DNA from: Yuukianura sp. NJ FZ-2021
Lineage: Eukaryota
Direction: 5' to 3'
Assembly: GCA_046563655.1 (NCBI GenBank)
Contig: CM102283.1
Coordinates: 434,001-498,000 of the forward strand
DNA length: 64,000 nucleotides
A program made the translations under genes and the position numbers. Positions 4,201-56,722 of the stretch are shown here, in pieces (the first letter of the stretch is position 1; each line of letters opens with the position of its first letter). Under the pieces are notes generated by a model that saw only the letters and a program-made list of their open reading frames with translations, ran no database searches and was not told the DNA's origin.

Positions 4201-7200
4201 CAAAATATGAAAAGGCCAAAAAACTGAAAAGACCAAAACATGAAATGGCCAAAAAGTGAAAAGGCCAGAATATGAAAACGCCAAAAAGTGAAACAAGGTA
4301 GATGTCAGTTGTGCAAACAAGTAACTTATATAGGATAAGTTTGCAGTCGGCTTAACAAAAGTCCATGTGGTGTACTGGACAGTGCGTTATGCACAGATCA
4401 CCGCTGCTGCGGGTTCAATTCTTCACCAAAGTGAATTTTTTTTCGGATTTCCTAATTAAATATGTAAAACGATTTTCTAAAAAATAAGCCTAATTTCAAA
4501 CAAAATTTAAAAAATAAAAAAGGGACACAATAATACGGGTGACAAGCTTTCTAAAAATGCAATAAAATCAATAAAAATTTTTTTTGGTACCAATGGGGTT
4601 TGAACCAATGAACGGCAGAACATATAACAGGAGACTTATTTTTTTTTTATTAAATCCGAATTCAGTGTGAAAAGTTAATAGCGGGCCATGAAAACCATAG
4701 TTCCGCACCCTACCAAATGCGAAACAAATCGAACTATAAAACGTGTATGTCAAAATTAACGCATTTGATACAACGTAACAATTAGTTTGAAGGTATCTTA
4801 CTGCTATTGATAAAAACGACGTAGACAAAGTATTTATCTAAAAACCTAACCGTTAATGGATTAGCAAAAACATAGAAACAGCAAATGTCAAACAATAACT
4901 AAAGAACGATAACTAAAATCTTAATTTTAACTACACTAAGTGTCCAATTTAACTATAAAATCCGATATTCTGAGCAATTCCGAGCAGATAATCCGAGACC
5001 GGTAGTTCGTCATACTTTTCGACAATACTGATGAGTCGAATCTCCAAATCCCGGTACTTCTTTCGTTGCGGCTGAGCAGGAGCACCAGCATTAAGTTGGT
5101 TCAGAACCATTTCAGTATGGCTTTGCTCTTCCTTAAGCTTATCGACGAAGCGCCAAATTGTCGGGTGAGACATACCGAGAAGGGTATTGAATCGCCGATT
5201 CCAGCCTTCGACCGAGTTGTTCGTTCTGGCATTGGTGACGACGGTTGCTTGAAAACAATTCCACAATGAATGTGCAAACATTGGTGGGCGCCATCTTCCT
5301 CGACGTCGACAGCCAATCCAAGTTGATTCAAAGTAGTCGAGCAACGGACGAAGTAGCTCCTCATTATCTTCATAAAATGGAGTGTTCAAAATGACGTCAA
5401 AGGACTGTCGGACGGCTTCAACCGGAACGAAGGCCAGCGCTGGTATTTGTCGGAGATAGAGGGCGAACTCAGCATCCGTGTTGTACTTATTCAAAATGTC
5501 TGGAAACTGCTGGACGTGTTTCCAGATACACTGCGAAAAGTGGAAAAAACATCCACGTTTTTCGGCGTTTGGAAAGACGGTATCAAAAGCATTGAGGCTC
5601 CCGGTTTCAAAGTCGGTCATGATCGAAGTTGGGTTGAAGTTGACCCCGGCGGTGACGGACAGGTTGTTCATCGCAGTTAGAAACCTGGTGTAAGTGTCCT
5701 CTTGCTTGTTGGGTAAAAGGCCGTATACAAGAGGCAAGGTCTTCTTGGATTTGACGCCGTGGACAGTGAATACTTGTTTAAACAATGGTGGTGAGCTCTT
5801 AAAAGTTCCATCCGCGTACCAGTGGCTGCTATGATTGAGAGCTCTTAAATTGGCTGCAGTCGAGAACAACAAAATTCGGTCGTTGCCTGGTCCGGAATCG
5901 AACAACAAAAACTCATCCCCGGTCAGCGTTTTGGTAAATCGTAAGGGCAGGATCAGTTCGGTTAGGTCCCTCGGGTTGGCAGGTGCTGAAGTTTCAACGC
6001 GACGAGTACGATTAATTGTGTTTGAAAGCTGCGATGATGAGGGAAATACCCCTGCGACAGCTTTAGACATCCCGGTGGTTGCGACGGCGATGATTTGAGA
6101 TGGAATCGTAGGCGTAGTTCTGGCCGTTTCTTTAATTGTGCTGATTAATCTCATTTTTTCCAAGGTCGCAGCATCAACAGGGTGATCATGACCTCCAGTC
6201 TCGGATTTGACCTCGTCGTTGGTGGTAACGCACTTTCCTGGACAGCCTTGTCGGTATTCCGTGCATCGCCAATAGACTGAGTCCTTGTAGTTTCCGGTTT
6301 TATAAAAAGTGTGTCCATTTTGCAGTAACAACTGCTTCCCTTTTTGTGATTCCAAGAATTCGAGTGGCATTGTTACTAAAAATTATAATTTAACCTTCAA
6401 TTAAACTTTAAACACTAAAAAAATATAAATATGTATGTTATATACATTACACTTACGCTGAATTCGATGCAATTGGTCTAGATGACCTTAGGATGTGTCC
6501 GAAAACGATTAAACCAAACGGAAACCAGTTGTAGTGTACCAGATGTAGACGTTTTCAAATTTACACTAAAGTTGTTTATTTATGTACTGATTTTCCTTCA
6601 AAAAGTTTTTTTTTCCTTTTTTTTTTGAAAGTGAAGCATTAGCGGTTGTTTTTTTTTTTTGAAATTTTTGTCTTTTCCTGAAAGCACAGAATTCCAGCGA
6701 GAATGATAAGACATTTGAAATTTTTGTAAAAAAAAATCCCTCATTTGAAATTTCAACTGCTAACTTTCGGGGTTTTGGCATTCTGGTCTTTTCACTTTTT
6801 GGCGTTTTCATATTCTGGCCTTTTCACTTTTTGGCCATTTCATGTTTTGGTCTTTTCAGTTTTTTGGCCTTTTCATATTTTGGCCTTTTCACTTTTTGGC
6901 GTTTTCACTTTTTGGCCATTTCACTTTTTGGCCATTTTCTTTTTGGCGTTTTTAGATTTTGGCCTTTTCACTTTTTGGCCATTTCATTTCTGGCCATTTC
7001 ACTTTTTGGTCATTTCACTTCTGGCCTTTTCACCTCTGACCTTTTCACTTTTGGCCAAATTATTTTGGCCAATTCACCTGCTACGGGAGTGGGGAGGAGT
7101 GGGGAGTGAGGAGGAGTGGGGAGTGAGGAGTGAGGAGGAGTGGGGAGTGAGGAGGAGTGGGGAGTGAGGAGGAGTGGTGAAATGTTACAAAATCAAACTT

Positions 7201-21973: not shown

Positions 21974-24900
21974 ATGGACGTTGACATGGGTGTTGCGGGG
22001 GGATTTTATGCCGACCCTGGTGAGATCGATCAACGGGGGACCCATCATCGGTCACATGAAACCGGGCAAACACGGCACATCAAGAAGGGCCCCAACATTT
22101 CTACGAAAGCAAGGCGTAGTGCCACTCAAGCTCCTTCTCAACCCGAATCGAACAATGTGTGCACTTTTAACCTTGGAACTGACACTGCTCAGCCTATGCA
22201 GAAGGACACTGCAGTCAGCGAAGCTAAACGGTTCAAACTGACGCCAGAAGAAGTCCGAACTGGACTTTGCTCTGTGTGCGGGGTAATGTTCAGTCCCAAG
22301 TCGAATGCAGCCGCTTTGTATCGCCACATCAAGTATTTCCACGAACCGTCAAAGCCAAACCTACGGTAAGTCAAGTGGAACTGAATCAGTAGAGACAAAC
22401 TGAAGCAAATAGTGAAATTAAGCGAATGTTTGTCTAATTCTTTTTAATGGCCTTTGCAGATTTGGTCCGACAACATGCAAGATCTGTACTGCTTCCTTTG
22501 AAAATTCCAATTTCGACATGGCATTATACGATCACATGAAAACGGTCCATCAATTAGTTCCTCAATTCCACTGCAAGTGGTGCAAACGTTCATTTCCTAG
22601 TGAACAAGCGCGAGTCGTAAGTCACCATCATAATCATTTTGTATTTACAACGGTTCTATCCATCGATTTATTTTTGATTTATTTGCTTATAGCTTCATGA
22701 AGTTGATCATGCTTCCCGACCAAGTGAGCACAACTTCCAAGGCTGTACGAAGGCTACTACGCCAATACCAATAGCATCTGACATGTGGACTCAGCGGCAG
22801 CAGACTCACTTGAGCACAGACGAAGTGAACGTTGAGGAAGAGTCGGCTTCAGCTCCAGAAAGGCCGATTAAACCAGAAGTACACACACAGCATCCTATTA
22901 CTGCGGAGGATGAACAACAGCAGGAAGCCGTAGTGCAACATCTCGGCAGTAACAAGTTCATCATCATTCTAAACGCAAAGAAAACAGAAGCCGGGACAGA
23001 AGTTAGCTACTCAGAGGATGGACTCATCCAGCAGGCGCAACTTGTGGAAGTAGATGATCTGAGCGACCCCTTCAGAGTCGCTGAAGCTATTCAGTTCCAA
23101 ATCCAGAATGGAGAGGCTGTTCACATGCAAGAGACTGATGGAGCCGAAAATGTGGGACAATTCAACATGGAGACGGGAGTGGATGTTTTTCAAATTCAGT
23201 TTCACGATTCAGAAACCTTGGCTTGGGAAGAAGCTCAATACGAAGAACAGCAATTAGTTTGGGATGACGGAGAGTCAGTTGAGGCCATGGAGGAGGGTGA
23301 GGCGGATCAAATGATAATAAAGCAAGAGTTGAAGTTGACGCAAGAAGATCTCATCATTCCGATTACACTAGCTTCTGAAGTTACTCCTCCTGAAACGGCA
23401 ATGCCTCCGCTGATTGAAACTGTGCTTCCACCATCTGAACTGGACGCTTCATTAATCACAATGCCTTCACTCATTCAAATTAATCCACCACATGAACCAG
23501 CTCCTACTGCAACAATGCCTCCTCTGATTCAAATTGCGCCGTCACATTCTGAATCGACTGCTCCACCAGCCACAATGCCTCCACTGATTCAAATTGTTCC
23601 ACCGCTACCAAGAGAAACGGGTCTCCCAAGTACAAAGAAAGCATCCGATGTCAAAGTCATAGTCACTGCAGAAAATTTAAACTGTCCAGAACCACCAATA
23701 AGTCCGCCATCTCAATTAGAAGTTTCACCATTAGCAGATTCAGATGCGACTTCTCAGGATGAGCCACCAAAAGAGGTTTTGGAATCCAATGACTTCACTG
23801 AGCCTACGAAAGCAAGTAACGTCAAGGAGGTTTTAAAAGCAAGTGACTTCCAGGATCTTTTGCAATTGGATGAAGACGACGGCGGGAAAGAGAAGACGCC
23901 TTCACAGGTCACCGTGAATACGGAGAAGCAAGACCCTGAAAAGGAGGATGAAGACGAAGTAGAGTCGGACATTGAGCTGGTGGATCTTGTTTCTGAATCG
24001 GAGACATGGGAACCACCTCTTTCAAAGTCCAATTCGAGTGACTATGAAGTGCAAGTTGAAATCGCTTCAGTAACTTCCAATGAGTTGAGCTCAATTCGCG
24101 TTCCACCTAAGATTGGCAAAGGAAAACGAAAAATGGCTTCTACTCCTCCCGCTTTGCATACAAGTCGGCCACAAAGTAAACCACCGACGAAAGGAAAACG
24201 AACACCAGCTAACAAGAGTGGAGTGACGGATGAGCCTCCACGTAAGAAAATTCCTCCTTATATAACAGTGAAAGTCGTCATACCGGTTGCGTCTCGCGAA
24301 AGGAAACGGCGTCTGGATTCTAAATTGAACGAGATTTGTGGAATGATTCGGGAACTGGTGGACGTATCAATGGAGACTGATGATGATGACATTGACATCC
24401 CTGATGATCCTCTGATGGCAGCACATGACGAACCTGAGCACACTCTGGTGCGACCACAGAAGAAGAAGGAAAGTGCAAAGGGAAGTTCGCTGCTTGCTAA
24501 GAAGACGGAAATTGCAAAAGGATGTTCACCGCTTGCTAAGAAGACGGAAAGTGCAACGGGAAGATCGCGACCTGCTAAGAAGACGCAAAGTGCAGAGAGA
24601 AGTTCGACTGCTAAGAAGACGAAGGAGCCAGCGTCATCGCACCCAGCACTGAAGGACGCAGGATCAAGGCGTGACACGAGTGTCAGCGGTGACTTACGTG
24701 CACTGAGCACAGCGCATGACGAACCGGAGCAGACTCTTGTGCGACCACAGAAGAAGACGGAAAGTGCTAAAGGAAGTTCGCCACTTGCTAAGAAGACGGA
24801 AATTGCAAAAGAATGTTTACCGCCTGCTAAGAAGACGGAAAGTGCAGAGGGAAGATCGCGACCTGCTAAGAAGACGCAAAGTGCAAAGAGAAGTTCGACT

Positions 24901-25584
24901 GCTAAGAAGACGAAAGAGCCAGCGTCATCGCACCAAGCACTGAAGGACGCAGGGTCAACGCAGGACGAGAACATCGTTGGTGACTTACATGAACTAAGCA
25001 CAGCGCAGGACGAACCGGAGCAGACTATAGTGCGACCACAGAAGGAGACGGAAAGTGCAAAAGGAAGTTCTCCGCCTGCTAAGAAGAGGAAGACTGAAAG
25101 TGCAAAAGGAAGTTCACCGACTGCTAAGAAGACAAAAGCCAGATCCCTATCGCACATAGTACTGAAGGACGCAGGGTCAACGCAAGACACGAACATCGTT
25201 GGTGACTTGCATGGACTGAGCACAGCACAGGACGAACCGGAGCAGACTCTTGTACGACCACAGAAGGAGACGGAAAGTGGAAATGGAAGTTCGCCGCCAG
25301 CAAAGAAAGTGAAGGAGCCAGCACCATCGCACACAGCACTGAAGGACGCAGGGTCAACGCAGGACACGAACATGGTTGGTGACTTAAGTGGAATGAGCAT
25401 AGAAGGGATGCTGGAAGCGAGGAGCAAATTACTTGTCCCACTTCGACCACGATCCAGGTTTGTGACAGGCTTTTCCCCATCACCTCCCTTCGTCCCGTCC
25501 AGAATCAGAAGGGTACCAAGGAAACCAACCTCACTCAGAAGGGGAACCAGAACTAGGAAGACGAAGAACTTTGCATTTGAGTAA
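21974..25584 (+). CDS. C2H2 zinc-finger protein with acidic middle region and Lys/Ser/Ala-rich repetitive C-terminus
   Basis: Exons 21974-22365, 22460-22616 and 22693-25584 are in frame. Three CxxC...HxxxH fingers (CSVC, CKIC, CKWC). Confidence 0.8.
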
Positions 25585-52904: not shown

Positions 52905-54983
52905 ATGGAGCTTACCGTTCCAATGCACTCGAAGCTGGTGGACACAAATGCCAAATTGGACTTGTTTTCCATGCCAGATACAGAAGTTTCTTGCTTGCTG
53001 GACAATTATCTCAAAGTAGAGTCGTACTATGCAACAAAAGGAAATGAAAATCCGATTCATTTTTCGTTTTGGCACATGGCCTACTTGGATTTGTCGGATT
53101 CGTTTTTCAGATTTGTAGTCTCCATTCGAAAAAAAGATGGTTCGGCACTCGGTGACACAGACAAGGTTGCTCCGGAAAATCTGTTCTTTCACACATTTAT
53201 CGAAGATTTTAAAGTCGTTGTCAACAACACGCAAGTCGTGGCCCAGGGGCCAAGGGCATACCCGTACGAGGCTTGGATATTTACTCAACTTCAGCAAGGG
53301 ATTGGTTCGAAAAGCAGTACATTGTCCAGGGAAATTTATTTTCCCGGCAATGTTATGGACAACTTTGACGACACAAACCCAAGCTTCAAAGCTCGACTTG
53401 AGCTGGCAAAGAAAAGTAATCAATTTGAGATGATTGGACGCCCGATGCTTGGAATTTTCACTTCGCCGAGACTTTTCCCGCCAGGAACACGGTTCAATTT
53501 TCAAATTCAGCGGACCAACCCAGAGTTTTGCTTGTGCGGACCATCCTCTACATCTGAATACAAGGTTGAAGTGGAGTGTGCAGACTTTTACGTTCGCCAA
53601 TATCGTCTAAATGAAAAGTTGACTACTCAACTTCGCACCGCATTTGCAAACAAGGTAGGGCGATGCTCAAGGGTTGAGCATAGGTCTTCTGGAGGGAGTT
53701 GACAATTGATACGACATTTAGACCGGCCTACCGCAAAACTGTGGACAAAATGAGAAACCGTTTTCATGGAATTGACGTATTAAAACGTCACTGAAAATTT
53801 TCAGTGCGAATGTGAGACACTACTTTGAGCATGAGTTGCACCAAATTTTGTATTGTCGATGTTGTCATGGCAATGCTCAATGTAGTTCTCAAACCTGCAC
53901 AAACCTTCAATTGTGTGCATCAGGGTGCATCATGCACCAAATTGTACGTTGTGGGGTAGGAGTCGAATATCGTTTCTTTAAAATCCAAATCATAAAAATT
54001 GACTTGTGAATGCAAATTTGACCCCTTTCATTCACTATTCACATATTACGAATTTAAGCCGGAACTTCTACACTCTAACGAGGCTTAAATTAACAACGTG
54101 AATAAACATACTGTCAGCAAATGACAGGGTCAAAACTTCGTTGTTTAAATAAATTTTGAGTATAATCGAAACCAAAAAATGTCGGGAAACGATAACACTG
54201 CGTGTGCGTAAAGTGGCCGCCCATTTCTACGCTGTTAATTCTACAATTTTAGTGCAATGTAGACCTAATGAAAACACTTGAGCCAAACATAACCCCCCGA
54301 ACAAATTGGGGCTTATGTTTCAGTGCAAAGTATCCTAAAAAATGTGACAGACGGACGGACAAAGTCGTATCAATAGTCTTCTTCAGCACGTCGTAGACGT
54401 GCGTCTCCAGAAGACTAAAAAGAAAATGGCATTGTACTCTTTTGACAACGCCGTCAAGTTCTCTACGTATGTACCCATTGGGGTCACCGAATTTGAAATT
54501 CCAAAAATTATGCCTACCGCAATTCGGCCAAAGCTTCTCTGCATTGCAATTACGACAAGCGAAGTCGTCAATGGCAAACTCGAAAAGTCACCGTTTAATT
54601 TCAAACCACATGGAATCAAAAACATGAAACTCAAATTCGAAGGAAAGGGAGTTGTTTTTGAGGAAATGAACTTTGAAAACAAAAATTACATGCTGGCCTA
54701 CAACAACATGTGCAAGTTAATTTCACATGGAACCGACGGAAACGACATTACATATGAGCAATTTGTAAAGGGCAATGCGATTTTTGTGTTTGACACTCAA
54801 AACTTGAGATCAGACACGTTCAACCCTGGAAAAATTGGACAATTTGCATTGGGCCTTAGTTTTGACGAAAAGACAAAGGAAGAGCTAATGGTTATCACCA
54901 TTGCCGTGGAAGACGTTACACTGGAAATTGGAGAAGGCGGACTAACGCGTTTCGCATCTACGAAAAGCATTTTTTTCAAGTAA
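52905..54983 (+). CDS. Polinton/adintovirus-type double jelly-roll major capsid protein (hexon-like), split by an insertion
   Basis: The N half has LDLFSMPDTE, YLDLSDS, VAPENLFFHTF, YPYEAWI and RLFPPG. The C half has RPKLLCIAI...NGKLEKSPFNFK, YMLAYNNM and GNDITYEQFVKGNAIFVFD. These parallel, from memory, Polinton MCP motifs (LDLF..P.T, YLDL, P.NLFLHSLF, YPYRAY, NPFNF). 52905-53654 plus 54411-54983 gives 440 aa. Confidence 0.82.
53649..54417 (-). mobile_element. Helentron-associated non-autonomous element (HINE/DINE-1-like)
   Basis: Subterminal inverted repeats gtcttctggag (53684-53694) / ctccagaagac (54405-54415). Extra IR tagtcttct (54374-54382), GTCY microsatellite on the minus strand (54346-54360), terminal stem-loop atgctcaa-ggg-ttgagcat (53663-53681). 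Inserted in an A/T run without TSD. Confidence 0.75.
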
Positions 54984-56722
54984 TTTTTCTCAACTTAAAA
55001 TTTCAAAGCGTTCCTTCATATGTATTCCACTCACAATACTTTATACAATTCATAATCTTGTGTAATGTATGGTATGAGCTTGAAAATAAAAACCAGCATC
55101 ATTAAAGCTAAATAAAAACAATAGTCTAACTTTGGATTTATTTAAAACTAGTTTTTAAGCGGATCGGTGACGCGGCATGTATTTCTGAATAAAATTATGT
55201 TGGCTTTTTGTGGACCGGCTGTGGTTTGCATCTCATTTTTTTATGATTCCACGAGTTTATTTTATTGCACTTTCTAGAAAAAATTGGCAGAGGATTTTAA
55301 AACATTTTGCGACCAGCCACTCCCATTGGTTGGACTGGGCCATTTTTGAACGACATGTCGACCAATCAGAAGCGAGCTGCACGCCCATTGGCTGAAAATT
55401 GGTATAGGGTTTGGAATTTTGACCAATCAAATTGCAGCAATGTACTGGCCACGCCCACTGATGCAACGACTCGTCGACCAATCAGAAGCGAGATGGACGC
55501 CAATTGGCTGAAATTGGTATACAGGTTGGGATTTTACCAAGCAAATTTCAGCATTTTACTGGCAAAGCCCTCTGGGGCAGCAACAAGTCGACCAATCAAA
55601 AGCGAGCTGGACGCCAATTGGCTAAAATTGAAACACGGGCTGGGATTTTGACCAATCAAATTTCAGTATTGTACTAGCCACGCCCTTCGGGGCAACAACA
55701 CGTCGACCAATCAGAAGTCAGGTTGACGCACTTTGTCGTCAGACTCGAGGGATTTGAACGTCCTTGGGCAGTTGACTTGCGATAAAGCTATTTCCCTGCC
55801 CATTCGAAACGACTAGTATGTGTAGTTTTGAAGGACTAGCGGACCAATAGTAACCGAGGTTGACGTCTAGCGGCAGAAATTAGTCGGTGAGATTTGTGAT
55901 TTTGAAAAATACCAAAATGAGCACTGGGTGTCGTATAAACTTGCGTACCAACACTCCACGGATCATAAGCAACTAGATGGAAACGCTTACTAGTCAAATT
56001 GCGGCATTGAAATGGTTACGCAATGCTTTTGCGGTGAGTGAAACGTTATTCACTCGGCGAAAAGCTAGACTGCAGAACTCCCACCAATGCCCTTGTGTTT
56101 GCAAATTAGGTTTGTATTGCAAATAAGTTTGTTTTTTGTACACGAGTCAATCAATTCACAAGGTCAAAAGTTTTCATTGCTTGAACTTGTCGTAAGTTTT
56201 TTTCGTGCATTCTAATTAGCGATCGCGACACGGAAGTAATTGGCAATTAAAAAACCGCAAACGTGCAAGACGAACAGTAGGTTACGTCTTGTGTCATCTC
56301 AAAATATTTTCGAAATATATTTAGAAAGGAACCTGATGTTTACAAAGAAATATTTTTGAGAATTTATTATTTAAAAGGGTTTCCGAGAAAAATAGTTTCC
56401 GTGAAAGTAGTATTTTCAAACACAAAAAAAAAATTAAAAACCAAATTAAATGCCAAGTTTAAAATGAGCCCAAGCTATAAAAAAAAACTAAAAAGTTGCA
56501 TAAAAGTGCAAAGAAGAGAGGATTTTTCAGGTGGGACTCAAACCACAAAACCGCAAAATATTTTTTAAATTATTTTTAAAAACTAATTAAACTCTTAAAC
56601 CTACAGTGAGCATGGACAAAAACGAAATATAAAAAGTTGCACAAAAGTGCAAAAAGAAAAGCATTTTGTGCAAAAGAAAAGGGGGTAGGGGGGGGGGGCT
56701 TTGCCCACCCAAACCATTGACT

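Follow-up and report, generated by a model that had tools for sequence, protein, structure and literature searches.

Within a 64-kb stretch of the genome of Yuukianura sp. NJ FZ-2021 (contig CM102283.1; the whole stretch is hereafter called the window, and all coordinates are positions within it), a gene predicted to encode the major capsid protein (MCP) of a virus-like element is interrupted by a 768-nt insertion with the anatomy of the DINE-1/HINE elements, i.e., of non-autonomous Helentrons. The two halves of the gene, which were compared with the homologous protein P0001 (P0001 and P0002 come from public metagenome data and are each 437 residues long, without an interruption), and the insertion that separates them are located as follows:

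52905–53648, plus strand: capsid gene part 1 (first jelly roll and linker helix); ATG aligned with residue 1 of the homologues, 54% identity to residues 1–247 of P0001
53649–54416, minus strand: DINE-1/HINE-like (non-autonomous Helentron) insertion, 768 nt; the edges can slide to the right by up to 2 nt
54417–54983, plus strand: capsid gene part 2 (second jelly roll); stop codon at 54981–54983, 45% identity to residues 234–437 of P0001

The limits of the insertion were obtained from public DNA reads. Five runs, from two samples and two studies, are listed; four of these (X1, X3, X4, and X5) were used, and their contigs were aligned to positions 51750–55200. One of the two studies may be the source of the genome assembly, so that the independent support comes from one or two studies. 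In all four runs, one contig per run joins position 53648 directly to position 54417. The length skipped in the joining contigs is exactly 768 nt, with the ends AA..CT, a slide of 2 nt, and 138–180 nt on the shorter side of the joint. In their flanks, the uninterrupted contigs show 34 differences to the window over 1899 nt in X1 and 5 over 732 nt in X4, and copies that are 98–99.5% identical to the window in the flanks are found in all DNA read sets examined. Accordingly, uninterrupted copies of the capsid gene exist as DNA, and the insertion extends from 53649 to 54416. The interruption had been reported in an earlier note on this sequence, which placed it at 53649–54417; it is real and sharply bounded, and the reported interval is one base too long. 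The uninterrupted MCP copies that the note proposed to look for are those present in the contigs of the four runs.

In the list of open reading frames (ORFs), the capsid frame opens at 52848 and is closed by a stop at 53700; another open stretch covers 54348–54983. Straight read-through of the capsid frame encounters 13 in-frame stops, from 53700 to 54345, before the frame reopens at 54348. The insertion itself contains no open stretch longer than 77 amino acids in any of the six frames.

On the minus strand, the structural features of the insertion, from the 5′ end of the element to the 3′ end, are these:

54405–54415, minus strand: 5′ subterminal inverted repeat (subTIR; minus strand GTCTTCTGGAG, plus strand CTCCAGAAGAC), 1–3 nt from the 5′ end of the element
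54374–54417, minus strand: 5′ inverted repeat with an outer stem of 9 bp, its arms at 54374–54382 and 54409–54417 pairing at 9 of 9 positions and lying 26 nt apart
54346–54360, minus strand: (GTCY)n microsatellite GTCCGTCCGTCTGTC, element positions 57–71, unique in the window
53684–53694, minus strand: 3′ subTIR (plus strand GTCTTCTGGAG), 33–35 nt from the 3′ end of the element
53663–53681, minus strand: 3′ stem-loop with a stem of 8 bp and a loop of 3 nt, 14 nt from the 3′ end of the element

The two subTIRs are complementary at 11 of 11 positions and, by eye, the pairing reaches 14 with one indel; a length of 11 nt is slightly below the published 12–15 bp (13 bp in DINE-1) and was accepted here as that of a subTIR. 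The 5′ arm of the outer 9-bp stem is nested within the subTIR, and an inner palindrome of 7 bp (54386–54392 and 54396–54402) lies between the arms. Folded as DNA, the 5′ inverted repeat has an energy of -12.2 kcal/mol (z -5.4) and the 3′ stem-loop one of -6.8 kcal/mol (z -4.4), with none of 200 shuffles as good in either case. The target site lies within a T run of the minus strand, and the insertion-free contigs contain no target duplication (only the 2-nt slide). The insertion is thus of the Helentron type with DINE-1/HINE anatomy, an assignment made by the described anatomy. The earlier note had proposed this architecture for the minus strand, and all its parts (subTIRs, 5′ inverted repeat, GTCY microsatellite, 3′ hairpin, and T-run target) were recovered.

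The closest parallels are with DINE-1/INE-1 of Drosophila as described in the accessible part of Yang and Barbash, 2008 (PMC2374699). The insertion shares with these elements the subTIRs, the incomplete inverted repeat that adjoins the 5′ subTIR, the GTCY-rich microsatellite in the 5′ block, the lack of an ORF, insertion between T's, and a very high copy number. It differs in the length of the subTIR (a perfect 11 nt here vs. 13 bp) and in its location in a coding sequence, of which Table 2 of that paper gives 0–15 cases per Drosophila genome compared with hundreds in introns; the coding-sequence cases are interpreted there as mildly deleterious insertions awaiting removal. Similarly, the HINEs, as they appear in the available portion of Thomas et al., 2014 (PMC4067079), have a 5′ subTIR a few nucleotides from the 5′ end (2–4 there, 1–3 here), a palindrome between the 3′ subTIR and the terminus (8–35 nt from the end there, 14 nt here), a T-rich target with variable boundary T's, and no target duplication. 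The distance of the 3′ subTIR from the end, 33–35 nt in the present case, falls just outside the 38–60 nt described for the HINE families of one genome, that of a mite. Every DINE-1 feature named in the parts of these two papers cited here has its counterpart in the insertion.

The insertion family is abundant in the DNA reads. The contigs matched to 51750–55200 number 1350, 1742, 408, and 757 in the four runs, and most of them fall on the insertion, as judged by summed depth; in X1, 415 contigs have a likeness of 99% or more. Word depth in X1, as a sum that is not a copy number, reaches 272,000 and 428,000 in the terminal bins at either end of the insertion vs. 615 in the flanks. These values mark a family that is highly repeated and in part very young. 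In X4, 8 contigs continue past 54420 into unlike, A-rich sequence, which suggests other insertion sites with the same terminus, as expected for T-rich targets. The earlier note had made its proposal depend on the existence of further genomic copies with these termini, and this condition did not refute it; hundreds to thousands of contigs match, and the depth is greatest at both ends. A second copy was not found in the window (blastn, word size 9, E ≤ 1e-3) or in the loci L001–L004, and a search of the viral contig collection with one terminal pattern, that of the 5′ inverted repeat, yielded no match.

Contigs of X1, X3, and X5 also contain joints in which position 54418 or 54420, for example, leads back to position 53648 or 53658, so that the 3′ end of one repeat copy comes a few letters at most after the 5′ end of another. 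Such joints look like head-to-tail tandem copies such as rolling-circle elements can make, and in one head-to-tail junction contig, from X3, the terminal letters CAAGGTAG recur.

The identity of the interrupted gene was established through its homologues; neither the two capsid halves nor ORF1 of the same element (see below) produced anything above thresholds in the Pfam, PHROGs, and PDB sequence searches. A profile search for capsid relatives retrieved 5701 representatives at E ≤ 0.001, with 411 at E ≤ 1e-30, most of them 420–450 residues long. From the best 150, 99 homologues were aligned, namely single-stretch, near full-length rows, with the short and two-stretch rows excluded; 5 of the 99 match PF21738 (DJR-like_dom, double jelly roll-like) and one matches the NCLDV capsid N-terminal family. 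The AlphaFold model of P0001 built on the 99-member alignment has a mean predicted local distance difference test score (pLDDT) of 91.9 and a predicted template modeling score (pTM) of 0.90. In a Foldseek comparison with the PDB, this model retrieved 242 chains at E ≤ 0.001, the best being the mavirus major capsid protein (6g44, 1e-15); the other leading matches, with similar E values, are the major capsid proteins of Singapore grouper iridovirus, Paramecium bursaria chlorella virus 1 (PBCV-1), and Sputnik. The top-ranking BFVD model is that of a Cotesia sesamiae Mombasa bracovirus protein (E 1.7e-21), and many capsid proteins rank behind it. This bracovirus is reported to carry a Maverick. 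The nearest clusters in the ESM Atlas are eukaryotic, with Arthropoda as the commonest phylum, and no relative of P0001 was found in the viral contig collection. By the predicted fold of this 54%- and 45%-identical homologue, then, the interrupted gene codes for a major capsid protein of the double-jelly-roll class and belongs to a virus-like element, in agreement with the capsid identity claimed in the earlier note. The host genome is that of an animal, probably an arthropod.

On the P0001 model, the insertion site maps to the linker that joins the helix 237–248 to the strand 253–266, with which the second jelly roll begins. This linker is short and nearly constant: between the columns of F247 and Y255 of P0001 it has 6 residues in 51, 7 in 45, and 8 in 3 of the 99 aligned homologues. 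Three proteins outside the alignment (P0004, P0009, and P0008) have linkers of 6, 6, and 7 residues, respectively, by eye. Two of these, P0004 (541 amino acids) and P0009 (555 amino acids), have extra low-complexity stretches about 100 residues long elsewhere, in loops of the first jelly roll. Thus, surface loops of this capsid family tolerate large inserts, and the inter-domain linker is invariant.

The capsid gene belongs to a small element (hereafter the host element), of which the remaining parts are:

51268–51699, unstranded: left inverted terminal repeat, cut by the N gap at 51168–51267 and containing 114-nt tandem repeats
51922–52479, plus strand: ORF1, a K/R/S-rich basic protein of uncertain coding status, with no family found
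55238–55669, unstranded: right inverted terminal repeat, with the repeat array continuing to about 55717–55760

The host element spans 51268–55669, i.e., about 3.8 kb without the 768-nt insert, and its outer ends are uncertain. Its inverted repeats are at least 432 nt long and 100% complementary, and they enclose only ORF1 and the capsid gene in about 2.7 kb of unique sequence, which leaves no room for a polymerase and an integrase. Family searches of the two ORFs of the host element identified no polymerase, integrase, packaging ATPase, or protease.

Membership in the Mavericks/Polintons was considered and rejected, the family B polymerase and the retroviral-type integrase of these elements being absent from the host element; as for the ends, inverted repeats of at least 432 nt are in place, and the N gap removes the outer left end, where a target-site duplication would have to be read. 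The double jelly-roll fold is what the host element has in common with the capsids of Mavericks/Polintons, virophages, and Nucleocytoviricota, whereas its size of only about 3.8 kb, along with the lack of the four genes sought, sets it apart from the Mavericks/Polintons. The host element may be a capsid-only, non-autonomous or satellite-like derivative or relative of Mavericks, and a literature search turned up no description of such a capsid-only element. It is a more unusual object than the insertion that it carries.

A search of metagenome contigs with a closer capsid alignment (A3) detected a contig of 3944 nt, L001, with the same layout: its ends are inverted over about 450 nt, its upstream ORF is K-rich, and its capsid gene is not interrupted. 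No similarity that could be aligned exists between this upstream ORF and ORF1. Among the differences listed between the window and the uninterrupted contigs (51838–54983), at least 8 fall in the capsid ORF, 6 of these being synonymous, compared with at least 16 in ORF1, most of them residue-changing, and at least 14 in a 425-nt spacer; this distribution suggests that the capsid gene is the conserved part of the host element. Differences by which the copies can be told apart lie at 53075, 53085, and 54477. Polintons with transposon insertions are described from insects in the available portion of the Pannagram preprint (10.1101/2025.02.07.637071), according to which polintons carrying insertions can stay mobile. 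The likeness to the present case is a transposon inside a capsid-encoding virus-like element; the difference is that neither an insertion in the capsid gene nor its splicing is described in that portion of the preprint.

The wider neighborhood is rich in repeats. To the left of the N gap lies a ribosomal DNA (rDNA) unit with 18S (47383–49193), 5.8S (49521–49672), and a truncated 28S (positions 24–954 only, 50002–51178). No continuation of the 28S is found on the right side of the host element, so that the adjacency of the rDNA and the host element across the gap at 51168–51267 may result from scaffolding and not from an insertion into rDNA. Farther away, an open frame of 477 residues on the minus strand (4949–6382) encodes FLYWCH zinc finger and MULE transposase domains and represents a Mutator-like transposase gene. 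A frame of 963 residues on the plus strand (22693–25584) contains no Pfam family above threshold and is overlapped by a frame of 442 residues on the opposite strand.

On the plus strand, i.e., in the direction of capsid transcription, the ends of the insertion contain motifs that resemble splice sites:

53652–53660, plus strand: donor-like AAG/GTAGGG, with the G at 53655, phase 0, rough score 7.9
54377–54386, plus strand: acceptor-like tcttcttcag, phase 0, leaving 30 nt of the insertion; pyrimidines at 14 of the 20 positions before the AG
54403–54410, plus strand: acceptor-like gtctccag, phase 0, within the subTIR, leaving 6 nt of the insertion; pyrimidines at 12 of 20 positions

The donor 53655 and the acceptors 54386 and 54410 of the earlier note are therefore present, all in phase 0, and its count of about 4 added residues holds, as splicing to 54411 would add 4. 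The donor-like motif is located entirely within the insertion and is the complement of the 3′ terminal bases of the element past the 3′ hairpin; splice-like motifs are found 6 nt inside either end. The residue that would be left after splicing, 12 or 36 nt, is a multiple of three, is free of stops in any phase, and is fixed by the termini alone. The scores used for these motifs, from a donor matrix and a simple acceptor score, are rough. A frame-keeping GT..AG pair of any quality outside the stops appears in 2175 of 3000 dinucleotide shuffles of the insertion, a donor at least as good as the observed one before the first stop in 113 of 3000, and a pair at least as good as the observed one in 20 of 3000; within the window, donor-like 9-mers this good recur at roughly one per 2 kb on each strand.

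The context of the acceptors is poor. Both lie in a hairpin, the acceptor region having an RNA fold of -27.9 kcal/mol (z -2.8, matched by 2 of 200 shuffles), in which the pyrimidine tract of the acceptor at 54386 pairs with the subTIR that contains the acceptor at 54410. No branch-like YTNAY motif is present 13–52 nt upstream of either acceptor, and three poly(A) hexamers (AATAAA/ATTAAA) occur on the plus strand inside the insertion, at 53779, 54101, and 54148.

We consider it quite probable that the interruption is an ordinary, recent, and disruptive insertion of a transposon, affecting a single copy of an element that is present in multiple copies. Under this explanation, a non-autonomous Helentron of the DINE-1/HINE type would have inserted in antisense orientation, without target duplication, into a minus-strand T run that corresponds, on the plus strand, to the lysine codons in the short linker that connects the jelly rolls. 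The 13 in-frame stops added by the insertion would have broken this copy of the gene. The insertion would be recent and specific to one copy or to one allele, and the splice-like motifs would be by-products of sequence kept for transposition: with the donor being the complement of the 3′ terminus and one acceptor lying in the subTIR, the motifs would be conserved for the transposon's own reasons. The choice of the site, likewise, would follow from the preference of the element for T runs and not from selection for a tolerant spot. Given that uninterrupted copies are present in every DNA run, the interrupted copy need not function; it has probably lost its function, and selection for splicing is presumably absent. 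The repeat-rich neighborhood, with the truncated rDNA unit and the scaffold gap directly to the left, also counts in favor of an ordinary insertion.

Several observations weigh against this explanation. The contig pieces listed include none that bridges a flank and the insertion and would thereby show the interrupted form in the read sets. The two halves of the gene are otherwise intact, and most of the listed differences between the window and the uninterrupted contigs within the capsid ORF are synonymous. The splice motifs are better than chance by the rough score (20 of 3000 shuffles). Furthermore, the residue is set by the termini and stays in frame, and the element could therefore be removable in frame wherever it landed. 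Finally, Helitron-derived introns are on record in other eukaryotes, as stated in the accessible part of a 2025 study (PMC12130899).

Among the rival explanations, the one that fares best, although we regard it as unlikely, is that antisense copies of this DINE-1/HINE family are in general introner-like, i.e., can be removed from messages wherever they lie, leaving 12 nt, whether or not the capsid protein works. If this were true, the cost of insertions into exons would be lowered. The donor at one terminus and an AG at the other are each set 6 nt inward from the end, in parts needed for transposition, so that they should recur in other copies; the head-to-tail contig of X3 does repeat CAAGGTAG at the terminus, and the 12-nt remainder would be in frame in every phase. 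However, this is the single further copy in which the terminus could be read, the window has no second copy, and the acceptor context is poor. Moreover, DINE-1 is nearly absent from Drosophila coding sequences (PMC2374699, Table 2).

Even less probable, in our estimate, is the intronization of this particular copy that the earlier note proposed, namely splicing from 53655 to 54410 (or to 54386) to yield a capsid protein that still assembles or otherwise works with 4 (or 12) extra residues in the linker. The phase-0 donor and the two phase-0 acceptors, the intact gene halves, and the Helitron-derived introns of PMC12130899 (in the part cited above) are all compatible with this scenario, as is the tolerance of P0004 and P0009 for inserts of about 100 residues, which are, however, located in other loops. 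The putative spliced forms would have linkers of 11 or 19 residues, in contrast to the 6–8 residues seen in all 99 aligned homologues and the 6, 6, and 7 in P0004, P0009, and P0008. In addition, both acceptors are buried in a hairpin without a branch-like motif, the poly(A) hexamers lie inside the putative intron, and, with uninterrupted copies in all four DNA runs, nothing selects for a rescue. These circumstantial points, derived from sequence, lean against a working product of the interrupted copy, and the inference of the earlier note that the capsid could still be expressed is not supported.

The same low probability applies to the composite claim that the DINE-1/HINE family is an antisense introner, with a donor 6 nt inside its 3′ terminus and acceptors 6 and 30 nt inside its 5′ terminus, that would have given an intron to the capsid gene of an arthropod virus-like element. 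Introners, i.e., transposons that create introns, are known (Gozashti et al., 2022, PMC9860276), and transposon-made introns include a few from helitrons, about 1% of the classified families (PMC12130899), so that even an intron at this locus would be a case of an already known kind. As with the introners in the accessible sections of these two papers, a repetitive element that bears splice-like signals close to its ends is located in a coding exon. The differences are that the defining trait of those introners is the presence, in genes, of many copies that are spliced whereas the present case is one copy known from DNA, that the acceptor context is poor here, and that the residual nucleotides would lengthen a linker of invariant length.

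Misplacement of the repeat inside the gene by the assembler, for which the N gap and the truncated rDNA unit 2.4 kb to the left and the lack of listed contig pieces bridging flank and insertion might speak, is very improbable because the boundaries match complete Helentron-type termini and the T-run target to the base and the skipped length equals the whole element exactly, which is unexpected for a misjoin.

If splicing did take place, the locus would represent a dated, base-exact gain of an intron that a rolling-circle transposon provided to an animal genome, in a gene of viral type, and would suggest that the most abundant repeat family of insects softens its own insertions into exons. On the present evidence, the value of an ordinary, disruptive insertion is practical: it provides the exact termini, the target, and the empty site for one family of Helentron-type elements, and it marks one copy, probably dead, of a small capsid-only element.

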